NCBI GenBank assembly: GCA_028534125.1
Contig: CM052816.1
Coordinates: 75,332,001-75,396,000, forward strand
DNA: 64,000 nt
Source: Lama glama
Lineage: Eukaryota
Direction: 5' to 3'
The position numbers and the translations under genes were made by a program. The notes beneath the pieces are model-generated. The model was not told the DNA's origin. It made no database searches and worked only from the letters and a program-made list of their open reading frames with translations. Of the stretch, positions 1-57,874 are shown piece by piece; position 1 is the first letter of the stretch, and each line of letters begins with the position of its first letter.

Positions 1-2170
1 GATGTAGCTATGCTAGCATCACACAAATTGGACTGTAAGGCAAAAAGCATTATTATGAAAGAAAGATGGTACTATACAGTGATTAAAAGAACAATTCACC
101 AAGAAGCTTGAACAGCCCTAAAGCTGCATACACCCAACAAAATAGCCTCAAAACACTGCAAGTTTGAGATTTGCAAATATTAACTACTGTGTAAAAAAAT
201 AGATAGATAATAAATTTATTTTATATAGCACAGGGAACTATATTCAATATGGTGTAATAACCTTTCATGAAAAAGAATATGAAAATGAATATATGTATAT
301 ATATGCATAACTGGGACATTATATTTTACACTTAAAATTGATACATTATAACAGTATACTTCAATAATAAAAAAGCTTATTTCATTTTGATAACTAAAAT
401 CCACAATTTTAGTTGAGGACTATTTTCAGCATAATTCTCATATTACATGTTAGACTATGCAGTTTAAAATTAGTAAAATCATGTATGATTAGACAAGAAA
501 ATAAACAAGCTTGATATAACAGGTATATAGAATTATGCTCCTCAAAATTAAAGAATATTCATTTTTTAAGCACATTTGTAATATATTTAAATATTAACCA
601 CATATGTCATATAGGAGATCTCAACAAATACCAAGATTAAATATCAAGTTCATACACACCAAGTTATTTACAATACAAAAAGTAGAAATAAATAACAAAA
701 ACAAAATAATTTAAAGAGGCATTAAGGAATTAAAAATTAAAAATTAAAATATTTTTTAGATTGAAGAAAAGTAATGGACAATAAACCTAGATATTAAACC
801 TTGTGAAATGAAGCTAAAATGGTCCTTAGAATAAAATTTAGAGCCTTTTATGCATATATTAGAAAAGAAAATATGTGAATTAATAAGCTAATCATCTAAC
901 TTAAAAAGCTGAAAGAGTAAAAAGAAATTAAATCCAAATAAAGGAGGAAAAACTAAGAAGAGAAACTGATTAAATACAAATCAGATAATACAGAAACAAC
1001 AAAATAAAAATCTATTTGTCCTAATGAAATAGACTAACCTCTAGAAAAATTGATCAAGAAAAAAATGGAATATAAAAATAAATAATGCTAAAAAATGAAG
1101 AGAAATTATAACTATTGGGGCAGTAGAATTTTAAGAGAAGTCCATATTTATGCCAATACATTTGAAAAAGTTAATGTTTTTAAAAACAGAACTTTCTAAA
1201 AATAACTTAATTAGAAATAGAAAGGCCAAAAAGCCTATAATGATTAAGCAGGAAAAAACAACTTTAAAAAAATCTCTTCTTACTGACAAACATAACATTT
1301 GGACCAGAATATATCCCAAGCATAATCTTCTAACCCATTAAAGAACATATAAACTCCTATTTCATATGAACTGTTCTGGAGAAGAGAAAAAAGATTAAAT
1401 TACAAATCAAAGTCAGATAGGATTTATGCTAAGAATTCAAGTATATTTTAAAATGAGAACATCTGTAAATGTTATTTCCCACATCAACAGATTAAAAAAG
1501 GAAAAAAAAAGATTTGATCATTTCAGAAATGTAAAGAAGGTTTTTGATAAAATTCAACACCAATTCACAATTTTTTTAAAAAGCAGTTTTTAGCAGACTA
1601 AGCATTGAAAAGAGATTCCTTACTCAGATAAAGTGTATCTACCAGATATCTTAAATTTAGCATTCTATTGAACAATGAGAGACTCTGAAAATTTAGAAAC
1701 AAGGTAAAGATGTCCACCCTCTTTACTACTATCCAGCACTGTGTTGAGGGACTAGCTAGTAAACTAAGAAAACACACACACATTGGAAAGTAAGAGATAA
1801 AACTGTTACTTTTTGTAACAAGTCAAACTATGAGCTGCCTGAAAATAAATCTAACAAAAGGGGGAGAGAAACTTCATGAGCAAATTATAAAGCCTTACTT
1901 GACATAAAAGAAGTCCAGAGTGAATGAAGAGAAGACTAATGTTAGAAGGTGGGAAGAGTCCAATATAATAAAGATGACAATTCTCCCAAAATTGTTCAAT
2001 CAATTCATGCAATCCCAATCAAAATCTCAGTAAGTTTTTTCAGTGGATCCAACTAATATATTCTAAAATTAATATGAAAGAATGAAATGCCAAGATTAGC
2101 CAAAGCAATTTTGACCAAGAAAGGGAACAGACCAAGGGTGAGACTCATCCTTCCCGGATATACAAAGACA
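1..2170 (+). mobile_element. Ancient degenerate LINE-1 (L1M-type) ORF2 fragment, endonuclease to RT region, interrupted at ~161-373
   Basis: A-rich sense strand with eroded ORF2 motifs: cccaacaaaatagcctcaaaacac (PNN.ASK), tttgataaaattcaacac (FDKIQH), caatcccaatcaaaatc (AIPIKI), gccaaagcaattttg (AKAIL); many stops and frameshifts. Confidence 0.85.
161..373 (+). mobile_element. Younger artiodactyl/camelid-type L1 3' end nested in the old L1
   Basis: gtttgagatttgcaaata…tatagcacagggaactatattcaata…tatacttcaataataaaaaa; closely resembles the reverse complement of 63525-63740. Confidence 0.85.
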
Positions 2171-26345: not shown

Positions 26346-27054
26346 GATCTCATGATTCCTTCAGCTTCTACATTGATGAAGCCTCTCCAGTGGGGCCTGA
26401 ACAGCCAGAAACTGTCCAGAATTTTGTCTCTGTGTTTGGAACTGTAGCCAAAAAGCTGATGCGGAAATGGCTGGCCACTCAAACAATGAACTTCACTGGT
26501 CAGCTAGGAGCTGGGATCCGTTATTTTGATCTACGAATTTCCACCAAGCCCAGAGACCCCGACAATGAACTCTACTTTGCTCATGGTTTGTTCAGTGCCA
26601 AAGTCAGTGAAGGCCTAGAGGAGATCAATGCATTCCTCACAGATCACCATAAAGAGGTAGTATTCTTGGACTTCAACCATTTTTATGGGATGCAGAAATA
26701 CCACCATGAAAAACTGGTGCAAATGCTGAAAGACATCTACGGGAATAAAATGTGCCCAGCGATTTTTGCCCAGGAGGTGAGTCTCAAGTACCTGTGGGAG
26801 AAGGACTATCAAGTGCTGGTCTTCTATCACAGCCCAGTGGCTCTGGAGGTGCCCTTTCTCTGGCCAGGCCAGATGATGCCAGCACCCTGGGCCAACACCA
26901 CCGACCCAGAAAAACTGATCCAGTTTCTTCAGGCGTCCATCACTGAGAGAAGAAAGAAGGGGTCGTTTTTTATATCTCAGGTGGTGCTGACCCCCAAGGC
27001 CAGCACCGTGGTCAAAGGCGTGGCCAGCGGTCTCAGAGAAACAATCACAGAAAG
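26346..27054 (+). CDS. PLCXD3: PLCXD3 internal coding exon (exon 2), PI-PLC X-domain containing protein 3; 709 bp, phase 1 start, phase 2 end
   Basis: Acceptor ttgttattttttctAG (AG at 26344-26345) and donor AG|GTAAGT (GT at 27055-27056). Translation (G)SHDSFSFYIDEASPVGPEQPETVQNFVSVFGTVAKKLMRKWLATQTMNFTGQLGAGIRYFDLRIS...YFAHGLF...ASGLRETITER is near-identical to mammalian PLCXD3 as I recall it. It includes the two PI-PLC catalytic histidines (SHDS, AHG) and the GIRYFDLR motif. The ORF-track start (GTG 26390) and stop (TAA within the donor site) are artefacts of not splicing. Confidence 0.98.
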
Positions 27055-33137: not shown

Positions 33138-33252
33138 AACTCTAGTTCAAAAAGATACATGCACCCCAATGTTCATAGCAGCATATTTACAATAGCCAAG
33201 ACATGGAAGCAACCCAAGTGCCCATCAACAGACAATTGGTTTAAGGAGATGT

Positions 33253-33288
<36 letters not shown>

Positions 33289-33301
33289 CATATAATGAAT
33301 A

Positions 33302-33351
<50 letters not shown>

Positions 33352-33798
33352 GAAATATTACTCAGCCATAAAAAATGAAGTATTGCCATTTGTAGCAACA
33401 TGGATGGACATAGAGATGATCATACTAAGTGAAGAAAGTCAGACAAAGACAAATATTATGTTATCACTTATATGTGGAATCTAAAAAATAATAAAATAAA
33501 TCTGTATACAAAATGGAAATAGACTCACAGACATAGAAAACAAACTTACAGTTACCAAAGGGGAAAGGGAGGAAGAGAGAAATAAATTATGAATATGGGA
33601 TTAACAGATTCAAACTACCATATATAAAATAGGTAAGCAGCAAGGATTTACTGTATGTCATGGAGAACTATACTCAATATCTAATAATAACCTATAATGG
33701 AAAATAACCTGAAATGTGTGTATGTGCGTGTGTATCTGAATCACTTTGCTATACACCCAAAACTAATACAATATTATAGATCAACTATACTTCAAAAA
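33138..33798 (+). mobile_element. 5'-truncated artiodactyl-type L1 (end of ORF2 plus 3' UTR) inserted in a MIR remnant
   Basis: aaagatacatgcaccccaatgttcatagcagca…atagccaagacatggaagcaacccaagtgcccatc (FTIAKTWKQPKCPS); 3' UTR gactcacagacatagaaaacaaactt…caactatacttcaaaaa. The reverse-strand MIR core lies at 33030-33135. Confidence 0.93.
33255..33349. repeat. Compound (TG)n…(TG)n(TA)n microsatellite inside the L1
   Basis: Seen directly in the sequence. Confidence 0.95.
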
Positions 33799-34799
33799 GA
33801 GTCTAAGTCTTTTGAACTACTAGAACAAGAAGTCTGGCTTGTAAATCAGAAGGAAGTTCCAGAAAGCTCCTCTTTTCCTAGTCCAGGGCTAGGAAACTGG
33901 ACAGTGCTTATGCTGCCCTCAGAGGTTCTGACTGAGCACCTGATGCTCAAAGATTTTCATTTCTAAGAGACCCAGGTGAGCCTCGCTTTAAGTTGCACTG
34001 CTCCTGCCTGCAGATAAGCTGCACCTCAACTGCTCCAACCAAAAGAGGAACTTGGTTTTAAGAAATCTGGAAAGAGAATCAGCCCCAAGATTTATCAGTG
34101 CCCTCCCCACCTCAGGTCCTGGTAGTCCTTCCTTAAATCTAAGCTATGAGTCCTTGACCCACAGGACCTGCTAGATTTAAGTTCAGACTTGCTGGTCCTG
34201 TCACTAAGGTAGAGCTGCTGATAGTTCATTTCCAAAAAGTGGTCCTCAGCTCTTCTCTCCCATGTGTTTCTCTCCCAAGTGACATAGCTTGAGCCTAGGA
34301 TTGCTGTGCTTCAGAAGCACAGGCAAAGGCTCCTGGGAGGGGTTCTTTGTCCCCCTGGGCTCTGAAGCACATCCCACGGGAGAAGCCTTAGTAACTTCCA
34401 GACGCAGTGTCTTCCACCAAAACCAACCAACATTACAGCACCAATTAACATTACGGCTCTTTGCCACCCAATGGCCTCGCCAGCCCTGATTTCAAACAGT
34501 AAAAAGACTTCCAACTTGAGGCTTTGTGACAGAAGAGTGGTTTTAGCCCGGGTCATGCTGAGGTTATGGTAGGAATGGAGGGCTGTCTGTAACTCTCTCC
34601 GTTTTAACAACTTTTGACTCAAGAATTTTTGAAGCAGGAGTGCACATAAAAGCTCTTGCTCTCCTTCATTCTGCTGATGTTATAAGATTAAAGTACAGGC
34701 AAATAGAGATAGACTCCTTTCATTATTTGTAGCAGGAAAGTCAAAGACTGGAGAGAATTGCCAGCTATTGAGAGGTCAGATACCCATTCAGTGCCTTGT

Positions 34800-35653: not shown

Positions 35654-37756
35654 TTGCCTTCCTTTTACCTCTTTTCAGTGAAAGGTGAAGGGCAGTCTAT
35701 CACTTATTTCCGTCTGGTTTGAAAGCCTCTGACGTGCATTAGGCTTTCCATGTGCTTTTTCTTCGTTGTTCCTTTTGTCATTGAAACAAGGCTGTATCTG
35801 TGCAGAAGCCCAGACCATTCTGACAATGAGGCAAATCAAAGAAAACCTAGCCTAGGGCACGTCTACTGGAAATGCAAACTCTTCGGATTGACAGTCACCT
35901 TTCTTTGCAGTCTTAAGTTTCTGTCCATCTCACTGGACAAGAGTTGGAATTAGTTGACAAATATAAGGAATCTTAGGTGCTGGAGACTGAAGGCGTTAAG
36001 ACTAGGAAAGAAATGTGAGAACACAGCATTTAGTAAAGGGAATTGTGGATTCTTTAATATTGGTGAACATTCCAACTTCCTTCGTAAGGTTTTACAACTC
36101 ACTTAGGGCAGAAGGAAGCCAGAAGATGAGATAGCCAACTCCTATGTTTTCAACCAAATCTTTTTCTTGCCCTTTTTTGGCAGGGGAAGACATTGTTCTT
36201 TGCCTTGTTTGACTGAGTGTCCCTCAAGTCTTGTTTGTGTTGGATGTACTTGGTGATTGATGTACTAATTACCAGGAGTGATTCTGACAAGTGGCAAGTG
36301 TACATGCTTATTTAAGTGAGGTGATATAAGCCAAATCTTCTCTGTCAATGGATAAAGGAGCAGGGAATCGCTTTAAGTGTGTCCCACCTAACAAAACAGT
36401 TACATGAATTTCTAACAACTTACCAACCCCGCTAGGCACTGACATTTCAGCCTTTAACTTACCATATTCAGTTGATAAAATGTTTTCTTCCCTAATATTT
36501 TCAATCTAACAACAACAATAAAAAGCTGGAAATATGAAATTTTCTCAGCATATCCAGTCTTAGAGGACTTCAGAAGAAAATACTATATTTGTCAACTACA
36601 GACACTAATATTTGACTTCATTATATGAAGCACAAATCTTCTGGCTCTCGCTCTGTGTCTGGAATTGTAGCCTATTGCTAATTAACTTATTTAAAAGTAC
36701 TAAAAATAACTAGACAAGAATAGCTAGAGACTTGCTTGTCATAATTGACTTTTTTTCCCCCAGAAATTACAAGTGTGGCTTGAATTTTTGCTTTAAAATA
36801 TTCCTTCCTCCCACCCCCTCATCACTTATTTCCCTGTGGCCTCAGCTGTTAAAAGAAAAGAAGCTTATGAGTTGTTTCTGGAGCTGTGACATCCTATCTT
36901 GAAGGAGCGATGTGTGGCGGTGAGACTGCAGTGTATGATTTCATCAGTGAATGCTAGAGACACAGGCTGGCCTTTGGAAATGCCTGTGAGTTTTGACCAG
37001 TGTAAAACTGAGTGAATTCACCAAATAGCTGCTGCTTATCTAGAATACTAAACAGCAAAGCTGTTGCCCATATGATTTAGCTCAGGTTCAAAAATGAATC
37101 AGTCATGAAAATAAATAACACAATAACACTATAAAAATTATTCATGAAAATACATCTTTCAGATTTTTGGAGTTCATTTTTGAAGGATTTAATTTATATT
37201 TCCTGTTTCTCCAAATCAAATATTTGTGATACGTAGCTTGTCATGATTAGATTGTAGGGAAACTTGGTTGAGTGCTCAGTTCAGGCGGAGCTCAATCTAT
37301 TGACAGAGACCGTATGTGGATTCGGGGGAGACCTGATGGATCTATTGCTAGAAAATAGCCAGGAAACTTAATTTTATTCTCGTCTCAGTTTTAAATTTAT
37401 TGGTTAGCAGTTAAAGGGGTGATTTAATGAACTTAACTCTTGCTGCCATTCACAAGCAGAGCAGGCTTCCACATGAATTTCTACAAGTTTCTACATGACA
37501 GAGGAGAATTTCACACCTTTCAGGTACACACGGCTCATTGCCACCATGTGTTTGTACATCACCTATGTATCCAAGCAGCCTCCAAAAGGATATGGACAAG
37601 GACTCCTCTACCTGTTAAAGACTAAGGCTCCTTAAGACCATGAACCATGATCAGGGACATTTTGACATTTCCATTACATGGGCTGTGTGCATAAACCTGT
37701 TTCAATGAGCCACTGTTTTCTCCCCCAGCTAGCACTAGGTAGGCAGCTTTAGACTT

Positions 37757-37795: not shown

Positions 37796-38560
37796 TGGAA
37801 AAGATGAGAGAAGCAATGAAAATAAGTAGAAATCTAGTCTTCTCTCAGCACCTATGAGAATACCTTGCTTTTCTCCTGCTCATGCAGGAAGGAAGAGTTT
37901 TATGTTCAGTGTGTCCTCATCTTCCAGTTGAGGTTAGAGAAAAAAGTGCTCAAATACCCAACATGAGACTTTCTCACCTAGTTTCATGATCGTTCTGGAA
38001 CCTGCAATTGTGTTTGTTTAGCTTGCTCTCGACCTCATATTTTCTTTCCTTCTTGAGGTATTTCTTTGATGGTTATACTTGAGAGAAGTGTTTTTTGTTT
38101 TCTTTTCCAACATTGCATGACTTATCTCTGTGATATTTGGGGGCTTTACACCTTCTATTATACTTGCTAAAGATTCAGATAGCACTTAAATATGGTGGAG
38201 TGAAGAGGGGAAGAAAGTAATGTAACCCACTTGGTGGCTAGAATGTTATTTATCCTAAGACTTTAGAGAATTTTAATTTCTTTTTCAAAATGGACCAGAG
38301 TAACTTTTCCCAGGGTTCCAGCAGAAGAATCCATCTATTTATTGAGTCAGCCAGACTCTCAACAACAAGAACATAAGACCAAGCTGCGGGCTTAGAGTGA
38401 GAACAGGAGAGGCGAGGTGTAATGTCATAAAATTTTGCCTCATGATCCTTGTCCTTGGTTTGTAGGGCAGTGTCCTTGGGAATGTGAGATTTATATGAGA
38501 CACACAATTACGGAATGGTACAAGACAGAGTTTGCAACTCTTAGTACTAACTCTTTGACC

Positions 38561-38688
38561 ATACACCATGATCAGGTTAGATTCCTCCCAGGGATACAAG
38601 GATGGTTCAACACATGCAAATCAATTGACGTGATACACCACATCAACAAGAGAAAGGACAAAAATCACATGATCGTCTCAATGGATGA
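38561..38688 (+). mobile_element. Isolated 128-bp internal L1 ORF2 (RT-domain) fragment flanked by 13-bp direct repeats
   Basis: Encodes [42 protein letters not shown] (L1 ORF2 motif IHHDQVGFIPGMQGWFN…NHMIISID); taactctttgacc occurs at 38548-38560 and 38689-38701. Confidence 0.95.
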
Positions 38689-39848
38689 TAACTCTTTGAC
38701 CTGCAGATTTCATATGCCATAGGGGCTCAAAGGAAGGAAGGATGACAATAGTGACTTCTCTAATATTTCAGGACAATAATACACTGACCTTTCCTGCCCT
38801 TTAGCTGTCCTCCAAACATTGTAATGTTTTGCTCAAATATCAGGAGCACATTCATTTTCTCCACTCAAATGTGATCTACTGTTGTGGTTTTTTAATCACT
38901 GACCATTGAAAATAGTAAATAGCCTCTTTTCTAAGGTAGAAAATTATTATTGACTTGGGGAATATTTCCAGACAATAAGGTTCAGATTAGGCCAATGAGT
39001 GAGAGTTTTAAGGAGGTTTGAAAGAACCAGCCACAGACATTCAACACGTTGAGTGTTTATTGTTGTCTTTGTTGTTAATGGCAGCTGTTTATGGGGGGGA
39101 GGCAAAACCATTATGTGAAAGGATTCTCTTTTGACCACAAAATTCAGCAAGTATTTTGAGAAAATCTGATAACTACACACTACATGTTTTAATTTAAAAA
39201 TCTGAGGTGGGGAAAAAAAAAAGGCTTTTGAGCTTGACATTCTGTCCTGAACAATGAAGATGCCAAGATATATTTCTTTATTATCAAGAGTACAAATCAA
39301 ACAAAGTACGTTCCTTCACTTATTGAATTAACTTGACCACAGGGGAGCCGCTCTGGGGACTTCTGAAAGACAGCAGAGAGGCAACCTTTTGACAAGTGTG
39401 GTTGGCCTTTGCCCTGCCTTTCCTCTCAGTTTTGCGGCAAGAGGGGACAATTTTATAGCAACTTGACAAAACAGCAGTGCAGAAAGTCCCAGCTGTTCTT
39501 GCCCCAGCTGTCTCTGAGATCTAATAATATAGGGTGGGAATAGCACATCTCCCTAAAGAGCACACACATTTTAAGTTGCTTTAATTTTCCTGCCAATTAG
39601 ACTTTTAAGATGCCAAATGCATCTCCAGGCAACCTCTGTGACAATTTAGTACTCTTTGGTAAAGAAGCCTAAGGCAGAGAGAGATTTTCAAGTGGCAAAA
39701 TAGCATGGAAAAATTTTTACTCTTTCATTACCAAAGAAAAATACATGTGCCTCCTTTTACTTACGGAAATATGAAGACACAGGGATATTAACACTGACAC
39801 TAGTGAGGGCTGCTAAAGAGACCGGGAGTCAGAATTCTCAGCCTGGAA

Positions 39849-42750: not shown

Positions 42751-45499
42751 CAACTGCTATTAACATGAACAGTTTTGTAAGGACACTCAATGGTGCTCTG
42801 GTAAATTAAAAGAATAAATAATCCCCTTCGAGAACCTAATTTTCTAGGAAGAGATTTTGTTATTGAGACTAACTAAGCTTACTTTAAATAGAACTTTATT
42901 GTAGTACAGCTTATTATGATGATTTGGATTTTTCAGTAGCTGTGGATATACATAACACTTTCATACCCTAACTGTCAGAAGTTTTGTGGCAGTCTTGCAA
43001 CAGATATTTTGGGGTTTTGTTTCTCTCTAACACTAATATTACAGATTTCCATTATGTTTATCATTATTTTAATTTTATTACAATCATTTTGAGAACTAGG
43101 CTTAAATCTGTTACAGTGATTTTGTGCAGCAGAATTACCAGTGGGACTTCACAATCCCACGTGTTCAAGCCCTGTCTCTGGAGCGTCTACAGTGGGCCTG
43201 GATGCCAGTGTTATTCTGGTGTTAGGTCAGATGTGAGAAATGCTAAGTGATTATACTGTGAACTTCTTGAAGAAATGGACCACCACTTCTTCAGCTTTGT
43301 ACCCCTTAAAATGGCTTTAAATAGCTATTATGTATTTTGTGAGCAGGTTTGGAAGTCAGATACCACAGAAGATAATAAAAGAGAAACTAAGTTACATACT
43401 CCAAGCAGAAACAAAGTCTTGCATGTTTTAAGAAATGAATTAATAACATTTGACAAATTCATAATTGGCCAATGCTGCCTTAAATTATGACAATAGCAAC
43501 TTATAGGTGACAATCTCATTTTCTAAAATTCAATCTCTAGTATTTTTCTGTTTTCTATATTGATTTATACCAAGGAGCAAAGACTAGCCACATTTGACAA
43601 ATGGGTTACACACCTGTTCTTCAGGGATCTAATAACAGGTAGGGCTGACTGAGTAATGTTGACAAAGCACTGTTCTGAGGAAGACATGTTCTCGTCATTA
43701 ATCACATTTCTTATTTAACTGCACACCAACCCAGCAGATTCTGTTGCAAGTAAGCATATGTCCATCTCAGGGTGAGGTCAAGCGTGTCTGTATACACAAG
43801 GTTGTTATAGTAATACAGCAAATGGTTCATTAGGTTGATTCTAGGATCTCTGTCACCCTTGATGACAACTTGGTGTGACTGGGGTAATTGTGCAACTAAT
43901 TCTGGAAGCTAATGTGACCCCCTCAGATGAAATTTCCACACTCCCATGCGGCCCTCCCTGTTTGCCATGTAACTTGCAGTAACTCCATGTGACTTTCCAG
44001 ATGGCATGGCCCACTGAGCCTTTCCCATTTTGGCCCCATCAGCAAAAAGATGGGAAGGGAGAAAGATTTCTCCTATCTCTGGAAGTACGTCCCCCAGGAG
44101 GTTTTGGTAAGGGTTCATAGCATGTGTTTCAAAATACATTAATAGCAGAAAACTTTGTTCGGATGTGGTCCTCTATAAACTGGGTTATATGTAAACTGGA
44201 TGGAAGTCAGAGGCCTTTTTCATTTTTAAAAACAGGGGTATATAATCTGGCAAATGTTGATATGCCTAATAATAATAAGTTTAACATTTGTGTTAGTGAA
44301 GGAACAGTTAAAAGAACTGAATAGTTAAGTGAACGGTTAAAAGTCAGTTAATAGTAATGAAATGACTTACCCAAAGTCACTTACTAATTTTTGCCTAGAT
44401 CAGACTCTTCCATAATCATGCTCAGTGTTCTCTCCACTACCATGAGACCATCTTTGGCCATAATGCCCATCATTATAGTAAATCTTTCAGGGACATTGGG
44501 ATGCTCAGTTTTTTTTGGAGGAAAAGTGGTTGGGCAGTGAAGATAAATGGCTCAGTTTTGCAAACAATCACTTCATAAAAGTTAAAAATTGAAGCCAAAG
44601 GAAACCAGTTGATGCCCAAGGGAAGAAGACAAAGTAGATGAAAAATAAATAAGCCCTGAAGTATGGTGAGCAGAAGTTATTTTCTTCTTTTCCTGATATC
44701 CTCACCTGTCCCAATCCAAACTTAAGCCTGACCAACACCCCGTCCCTTGCCCATTCTCCATGTCGTACATGCAACCACTCTTGACTAGGGCAGCCTGAAT
44801 GGGGAGGGAGGCATTTGGTGAATGAAAGCAAGGCAAAGGTACTCATTTCCTCTAATTGCATATAATATGTGTCAAAGTAATTCAAGAAAAATCTTTAGCC
44901 AGTCTTCTAGCTCCCTTAGATGACACTGACATCCTTTCCAGGCATGGAAGAGAGTTTGGACCAGGATAAATGCACATTGACAGTCTACAGTATGACTCTG
45001 TTAAGAGCTCAAAGAAAGTGGAGCTTCAGGCTGAAACAGGAGCATGGAGGCTGAAATAAATGTGGATTGTGATGTTATTATTTCAGATAAGTATCTTTTT
45101 GCCTGGAAAGATAATTATGCAAGCTGAAAATTGTTCTAGAGTACATCATCCCTGTTCTGGTTGGAAAGGTGTTGCTCTAAGTGCTGTGTGGTTTTTTTGC
45201 ACTCTATGCATTTTCAAATACACTCTCCAAAGACAGAAGAATCATTTACATCGCGAAATCAAGCGTTGAGTTAAGAGATGTGATATCTAGAACTCCAAGG
45301 GTATTTTCTGTCTGTCATCAGTCTAAAAGATTGCCTCCCTCTGTACTCCTACTAGACTGATGCCTAGAGTCAGGCCAGTGTTCAGGGAGGAAAGAGATGG
45401 TAGTACAGTCAGGTTTGTCTTGGAGTAGACATGTACAGTTGGGTATCAAAATCTTGGTGTGCATCTGTCTGTATTCTGCTGGGAGTTTTTCTTTAGACA

Positions 45500-52639: not shown

Positions 52640-53662
52640 TTTAACACAGAGATATCACTACATATCTGCTAGAATGACTACGATCCAAAACTCTGACAAC
52701 ACCAAATGCTCTACCAAAAGTGGAGCAACAGGAACTCTCATTCTTCCCAGGTGGGAATACAAAATGGAACAGCTATTTTGGAAGACAGTTCTAACAAAGC
52801 TAAACCTAGTCTTACCATGTGATCCAGGCATCTCACTCATAGCTATTTATCAAAATAAGCTGAAAACATGTCTACACAAAACCTGCACATGGATGTTTAT
52901 AGCAGCTTTATTCATAATTGCCAAAACTTGGCAGCAAACAAGATGTCCTACAATAGGTGAATGGATAAACAAACTGTGATACATCCTTACAAGGGAATAT
53001 TATTCAATGTGAAAAGAAATGAGCCACAAAAAGGCATGGAGGAAACTCAAATGCATATTGGTAAGTGAGAGAAGCCAGCCTGAAAAGGCTACATACTGTG
53101 TAATTCCAACATGACATTCTGGGAAAGGAAGAACTATCAAGATAGTTGGATAATGATGAGGGTTGCACAACAATGTGAATGGAATTAATGCCCACTGAAA
53201 TGTACACTTAAAAATGGTTAGAATTGTAATTTTATGTTTTACACATTTTACTATGCACACACACAAAACTGAACGGATGGTAAAAGCTCAGTTGTTGCCA
53301 CAGCTTTAAGGAAAGGGAGGATAGTTTGCACAGGTGGAGCACAGAGGATTTTTAGGGCAGTAAAACCATTCTTCATGACACTGTAATGGTGGATTCAGGA
53401 CATCATTCATTTGTCCAAACCCATAGAACTGACAGCACAAAGAAAGAATTTTAATGTAAACTGTGGACTTCAATTAATAATAATGTATCAATACTGATTT
53501 ATGGACTGTTACCAAATGTACCACACTCATGCAAAATGTTAATAGGAAAAACTGTATGTGGAGAGGTGGGAGAGAGGGTATCTATGGAAACTCTCAGGAT
53601 TTTCTGTATAATCTAGCTTCTGTAAATTTAAAATTTCTCTAAAAACTAGAGTCTATTAAAAA
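52640..53662 (+). mobile_element. L1MC1/2-like 3' end (ORF2 C-terminus plus 3' UTR)
   Basis: TCTWMFIAALFIIAKTW..RCP..GEWINKL in ORF 52614-52979; UTR ggtggagcacagaggatttttagggcagt, catttgtccaaacccatagaa; ends gtctattaaaaa. Confidence 0.9.
53147..53264 (+). mobile_element. Short L1MB-like 3' terminus nested in the L1MC
   Basis: ggttgcacaacaatgtgaat…tgtacacttaaaaatggtta…aattttatgtt; degenerate flanking duplication at 53130-53146 and 53265-53281. Confidence 0.75.
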
Positions 53663-56702: not shown

Positions 56703-56758
56703 ATGAGACTTCTAGGACCCAGCCAGTCATCCATTGCTATTCTTAGTTTTGTCCAGAT
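56703..56758 (+). repeat. 56-bp dispersed direct repeat, copy 1
   Basis: 53/56 identical to 57819-57874. Confidence 0.95.
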
Positions 56759-57818: not shown

Positions 57819-57874
57819 ATGAGACTTCTAGGACCCACCCAGTCATCCATCGCTCTTCTTAGTTTTGTCCAGAT
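57819..57874 (+). repeat. 56-bp dispersed direct repeat, copy 2
   Basis: 53/56 identical to 56703-56758. Confidence 0.95.

Follow-up and report, generated by a model that had tools for sequence, protein, structure and literature searches.

The closest described counterparts of the locus analyzed here are tailless, L1-derived copies flanked by target-site duplications (TSDs). In the sections of the 2015 paper by Noll et al. that are cited here, tailless retropseudogenes are defined with TSDs of 8-35 nt, internal priming is favoured as their origin, and breakpoints are said to prefer A-rich internal sequence (PMC5322556). For human L1 copies flanked by TSDs, the same sections give counts of 90 (3'-truncated) and 5,593 (3'/5'-truncated), obtained with relaxed criteria and with the data not shown (PMC5322556). 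Internal priming, including priming at staggered breaks without an endonuclease site, is likewise described in the parts cited of two further papers (PMC5402677, PMC4859970). The initial annotation of this locus had placed the event outside the known profiles; this view had to be given up, because internal (non-tail) priming is a named third class in the cited portions of these papers (PMC5322556, PMC5402677, PMC4859970).

At the present locus, the 3' UTR and the poly(A) tail that characterize canonical poly(A)-primed insertions are absent, and instead of the features of endonuclease-independent insertions (no TSD and often a deletion of target DNA) a perfect 13-bp duplication is found. Three of the five features of the tailless class were observed, namely 3'-truncated L1-derived sequence, no oligo(A), and an abutting TSD within 8-35 nt, and an RNA origin is presumed. 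Thus, the locus is most likely a further case of a known, common class, that of tailless, internally primed L1 copies with TSDs. A literature search gave no paper on this locus among the 10 of 195 matches listed, in none of which PLCXD3 occurs, and its absence from print is not thereby proved.

Structure and Genomic Context of the Insertion

The window, that is, the whole stretch of 64,000 nucleotides that was analyzed, contains the following features.

1390..1562, + strand: remnant of a much older L1, spanning the same ORF2 reverse-transcriptase (RT) region as the insert and used only as a register reference within the window
26346..27054, + strand: coding exon, AG..GT-bounded, with a PI-PLC-X domain (context)
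38548..38560, + strand: left TSD copy, 13 bp (or 12 bp, should its first T match only by chance or through microhomology)
38561..38687, + strand: internal L1 ORF2 fragment from the RT region, covering codons 559-600 and the first base of codon 601
38688, + strand: single A at the 3' junction, not L1-templated; a poly(A) tail is absent
38689..38701, + strand: right TSD copy, 13 bp; the primer would be its complement

The sequence TAACTCTTTGACC occurs at 38548-38560 and again at 38689-38701, identical at 13/13 positions, with a spacing of 141 bp and no extension on either side. The 128 bp between these two 13-mers, translated in one frame, matched residues 559-600 of human L1 ORF2p (PDB 8UW3), with an E value of 1e-16 and 31/42 residues identical. 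The ORF2 fragment (38561-38687) is truncated at both ends and carries 5-7 replacements at conserved residues; a base further on, the A at 38688 lies outside the L1 template, because residue 601 is Ala, whose codon requires a C at that position. Alignment of the insert with the old L1 remnant near the window start gave a z score of 8.6, and the 300-bp flanks showed no similarity to the matching parts of this old L1 (z 0.46 and -0.15). A short aligned patch was considered as a possible extension of the L1 into the right flank and was discarded as not significant (z -0.15). No run of at least six A or T was present at either end of the insert, and the sole such run in 38301-39000 lies at 38888. 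The 43- and 73-aa peptides had no match in Pfam. The description given in the initial annotation, of a tailless ORF2 piece between identical 13-mers, with no L1 on either side and NSLT read in translation on both sides of the insert, was therefore borne out, with the end of the homology moved to 38687. We regard the insertion as real; both it and its register rest on protein back-translation. The frame stays open across the insert because 141 is a multiple of three, and a stop follows soon after; hence the open frame does not suggest a function, and we predict that the insert is inert.

Between the PI-PLC-X exon and the insert, which follows it on the same strand, there are 11.5 kb. We take this exon to be exon 2 of PLCXD3, and the insert presumably sits in the intron that follows it; no next exon was found downstream of the PI-PLC-X exon within the window. 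Other repeats were also observed in the window. Old L1 ORF2 remnants occur at ~1000-2100 (including the RT region at 1390..1562) and at 52650-52980, and the stretch at ~33145-33800 is, as we take it from its translation, a 5'-truncated L1 3' end comprising the ORF2 C-terminus and 3' UTR, containing a (TG)n/(TA)n microsatellite and retaining little tail. Two direct copies of a 56-bp sequence, at 56703-56758 and 57819-57874, agree at 53/56 positions across a distance of 1116 bp; their flanks are unrelated, and this dispersed duplication resembles the product of local templated copying. A perfect 13-mer direct repeat at 43446-43458 and 43590-43602, with copies 144 bp apart and no recognisable element between them, is within chance expectation and could conceivably mark an unrecognised insertion.

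Age and Spread of the Insert

We addressed the decay of the insert by comparing it with 66 L1 fragments, all of which were used, with 52-66 fragments per column. Nine of the 42 insert residues differ from the commonest residue in these fragments, and residues 577 and 589 were excluded from the decay count as variable columns. Seven single-base changes were counted at conserved columns (565, 567, 570, 576, 581, 597, and 599), comprising six transitions and one transversion; five of the seven occur in no more than two fragments. An RNA-editing or APOBEC signature was considered and rejected, the changes being mixed (three to G, two G>A, one T>C, and one A>C). The decay thus amounts to 4.8-6.8% of 104 replacement sites, the seven changes corresponding to 6.8% (95% CI 2.7-13.9%); it may be overestimated, and the age derived from it may be too high, because the 66 reference fragments are themselves decayed and are not the host's source subfamily. 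At a mutation rate of 1.1e-8 per five-year generation, taken from the cited part of its source and applicable only to a camelid host (PMC7305198), the age would be ~22-31 million years, with a range of 12-63 for the seven changes (hand arithmetic). A perfect 13-bp pair survives a decay of 5-7% with a probability of 0.16-0.28, and at 6.8% the probability is 0.16 (0.02-0.49); the perfect repeat therefore leans toward a younger event without establishing one.

To the decay we add the content of sequencing runs. The region was represented by 621 words (463 flank, 98 internal, and 60 junction words), and only 17 of the internal words avoid all seven changes. Twenty of the 24 listed runs contain 0.86-0.94 of 65 sampled region words, and none has all 65; these 20 runs come from 8 studies and carry three organism labels. 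The four other listed runs, with shares of 0.00-0.03, are small (2-68 million letters) and carry no evidence. Under random sampling, which these predictions assume, an empty allele together with ordinary L1 copies predicts a word share of 0.77; the 17 runs with shares of at least 0.91 reject this prediction (P 0.0002-0.003), and the three runs at 0.86 do so only weakly (P 0.045). Because this prediction is rejected, the diverged insert sequence exists in the sampled animals and is not an invention of the assembly. An empty allele with an identical donor elsewhere predicts 0.90 (P 0.46 for 4-6 words missing of 65), and a fixed insert with 1-2 SNPs gives P 0.38-0.43 for the observed shares, so that the two explain the word shares equally well; on prior grounds we favour a fixed insert over an empty site with a donor. 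The suggestion that the event was recent and possibly polymorphic is unsupported by these data, in which the insert is ~5-7% decayed and 20 runs of three labels hold 0.86-0.94 of the words.

Junctions and Priming Register

At the 5' junction, the codon preceding I559 is ACC (Thr), and the commonest residues there, among the relatives reaching this column, are Ile (22) and Leu (12). Estimated at the level of protein rather than host L1 DNA, the microhomology at this end would be about one exact base, which is ordinary for an L1 5' end. The microhomology previously noted at this junction is therefore a real similarity, but a small one, with Thr ACC standing where Ile is commonest. Searches for mammalian L1 DNA or for the flank found no match in viral contigs, prokaryote genomes, metagenome contigs, plasmids, or phages; the flank motif was among the sequences absent from the metagenome contigs. 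Word-indexed protein searches gave six C-terminal L1 fragments, none covering the insert region, and a further search of this kind was matchless. The stretch at 37636-37655, 921 bp upstream, matches the sequence across the insert's 5' junction at 18/20 positions (blastn E 0.05); as a local template for the junction it was set aside as probably a chance match, found post hoc.

For an L1 on the + strand, TPRT begins with a bottom-strand nick where the left boundary of the duplication will form, and the primer is therefore the complement of the duplication's first bases. In human ORF2p, D600 is followed by A-E-K-A-F-D-K, and these are also the residues found most often at this place in the 66 L1 fragments. 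The longest run shared in exact register by the duplication and the back-translated L1 continuation is one base. The TTTGAC emphasized in the initial annotation begins at position 7 of the duplication, 6 nt in from the primer end, and is shifted by 4 nt against the L1 register; with this 4-nt offset, 10/15 positions match the back-translated protein, TTTGAC included. Among 20,000 draws of random 13-mers from the window, allowing ±5 registers, a run of 7 was obtained in 4.4% and a run of 6 in 11.9%. Thus, the match with L1 exists, but it begins at position 7, lies 4 nt off register, and has a chance of 4-12%; internal priming, which it was called on to support, stands as the best reading, while this particular argument for it is weaker than had been claimed, the exact-register run being 1. 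We consider it about an even question whether the TTTGAC pairing took part in priming.

In the +4 register and with the duplication read as 12 bp, 7/10 primer-terminal bases would pair, that is, two of the last four and five of the preceding six (counted by hand). Under the snap-velcro rule, pairing among the last 10 bases can compensate for mismatches at the primer terminus (PMC3649969, in the part cited), and ORF2p is described as extending A:A terminal mismatches in the cited part of PMC10830420. Pairing in the +4 register would fit the snap-velcro rule and the mismatch tolerance of ORF2p, but 3-4 nt more would have to be lost. At the empty site, the bottom-strand sequence would be AGTT/AG under the 12-bp reading or GTTA/GT under the 13-bp reading; compared with TTTT/AA, the former agrees at 3/6 positions with the T/A step kept, and the latter at 2/6. 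Human L1 insertions at TCTC/AG and TTCC/AG are on record in the cited part of PMC4859970. The ORF2p stagger is given as 12-18 bp in the section cited of PMC10830420, and the 13-bp length of the duplication falls within this range.

Origin of the Insertion

We propose that an internal L1 ORF2 fragment was probably inserted via priming inside the L1 RNA rather than at the poly(A) tail, and that the insertion is likely old and fixed. The DNA end that served as primer, complementary to the first bases of the duplication, would have been freed by a nick at a degenerate endonuclease site (AGTT/AG) or by a staggered break already present. What the sequence shows is the anatomy of the insert and its decay; the nuclease, the RNA template, the register of priming, and the age are what we infer. 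The freed end would likely have paired imperfectly with the A-rich stretch 3' of codon 600 (A-E-K-A-F-D), possibly aided by the distal TTTGAC match, and 3-4 nt would have been lost, either by a slip at initiation or by a small deletion later. The reverse transcriptase would then have copied ~127 nt and joined the other end via a microhomology of about one base, the 12-13-nt stagger would have been filled in to give the duplication, and the insert would afterwards have decayed neutrally. Internal priming is supported by the closeness of the duplication to the L1 homology, 0-1 nt at either end; against it stand the exact-register complementarity of at most one base and the extra 3-4-nt loss that the TTTGAC register demands.

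As an unlikely alternative, a staggered break may have been repaired recently by copying 128 bp from a decayed L1 elsewhere, with DNA (through polymerase theta or synthesis-dependent annealing) or a transcript of that locus in trans as the template, so that the insertion would be young, perhaps private, though its sequence is old. A decayed insert within a perfect duplication is explained well in this way, with a likelihood ~4-6-fold in its favour, and so are the one untemplated base and the poor endonuclease site. In addition, no run has all the words, and the shares fit the loss of junction words alone (P 0.46); a fixed insert with 1-2 SNPs matches them equally (P 0.38-0.43), however. Templated copying in this genome would accord with the 56-bp dispersed duplication described above, but no donor for the insert was found within the window. 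Furthermore, in the parts cited, repair-type insertions are described as usually without a TSD and often deleting target DNA (PMC1920257; class 2 of the templated sequence insertion polymorphisms, TSIPs, PMC5110952), and from the counts in the cited sections of Noll et al. 2015 we would expect old fixed tailless copies to greatly outnumber polymorphic ones.

It is distinctly unlikely, to a degree beyond that of the repair just described, that the insert is a young polymorphic copy of a long-dead L1 (5-7% decayed) placed into a staggered break with 3-4 template bases looped out. In such a case, just as improbably, priming would have relied on pairing at a distance of 6-12 nt from the DNA end, and the copy would be tailless and TSD-forming, with a single traceable donor. 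If the locus were truly polymorphic with an identical decayed donor, it would mean recent tailless, TSD-forming copying of a fossil L1 in this lineage.

We regard as slightly more doubtful still the capture of a 3'-truncated L1 RNA, in which the nicked end, with 1-2 untemplated bases, would have jumped to an RNA end at codon 600/601; this implies no internal pairing and makes TTTGAC a coincidence. The lack of in-register complementarity and the 1-2 extra junction bases agree with such a capture, and non-templated addition and template jumping by ORF2p are described in the part cited of PMC10830420. However, Noll et al., as far as the sections cited report, found no truncated-RNA intermediates of 5S and U2 and preferred internal priming by default (PMC5322556), and the product would anyway belong to the same tailless class.

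Two further explanations have little to recommend them. A 5'-truncated, poly(A)-primed L1 that later lost ~2.5 kb of its 3' part, the deletion ending at the last A of the tail, would account for the lone A at 38688 and would give a long time for decay, but we consider it very improbable: the deletion must end within one base of the duplication, and the duplication has no initial A-run, unlike the tail-primed sites in the cited sections of PMC5322556. A deletion via TTTGAC microhomology was rejected, for the right copy is intact and such a deletion would have cost it TAACTC. We also rejected twin priming of a minus-strand element, the left end being without poly(T) and the right-edge top strand, GACC/TG, not being endonuclease-like. 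Finally, it is scarcely credible that the repeat surrounds an old L1 remnant by coincidence or that the assembly is at fault, for although 0.76 perfect 13-mer repeats at spacings of 30-500 bp are expected by chance window-wide and one further non-microsatellite example exists (43446/43590), the chance of one enclosing the L1 homology to within 5 nt at each end is ~3e-6, and 20 independent-looking runs must contain most of the insert words.

Comparison with Known Systems

Taken as an internally primed insertion, an old tailless L1 copy of this kind is one among probably thousands per mammalian genome, and it offers at most a clean presence/absence marker for host phylogeny and another example of loose priming by the L1 reverse transcriptase. 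Srikanta et al. 2009 are said to have described internal priming of L1 and Alu in hominins with the empty sites verified; unlike those hominin cases, the present locus comes from a non-primate mammal and is known from the filled site alone. It resembles internal priming as presented in the cited portions of PMC5402677 and PMC4859970, which refer to that work, in being 3'-truncated, with a TSD and no poly(A); an endonuclease site may be missing in such cases, since staggered breaks can serve (PMC5402677).

Like the tailless copies in the sections cited of Noll et al., the locus shows no oligo(A), a TSD, a break beside an A-rich stretch of the source, and W at the first position of the TSD (PMC5322556). 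Unlike their consensus TT/WAAAAWW, it matches only 4/7 positions and has AC rather than TT upstream, and the end complementarity, which is 2-18 nt in those copies, is seen here only with a 3-4-nt offset (PMC5322556). As in the non-classical insertions of Sen et al. 2007, in the part of that paper cited, an internal piece of L1 is found without a tail at a non-consensus site, with extra nucleotides and microhomology at the ends; those insertions, however, have target deletions and no signs of endonuclease, and this locus has instead a perfect 13-bp duplication (PMC1920257). The locus is also like the TSIPs of Onozawa and Aplan 2016 in being a short insert from a distant template and of similar size (73-414 bp in the experimental cases). 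In the cited part of that work, class 1 combines a TSD with poly(A) and TTTT/A, and class 2 is a repair patch; the present locus combines a TSD with the absence of a tail (PMC5110952).
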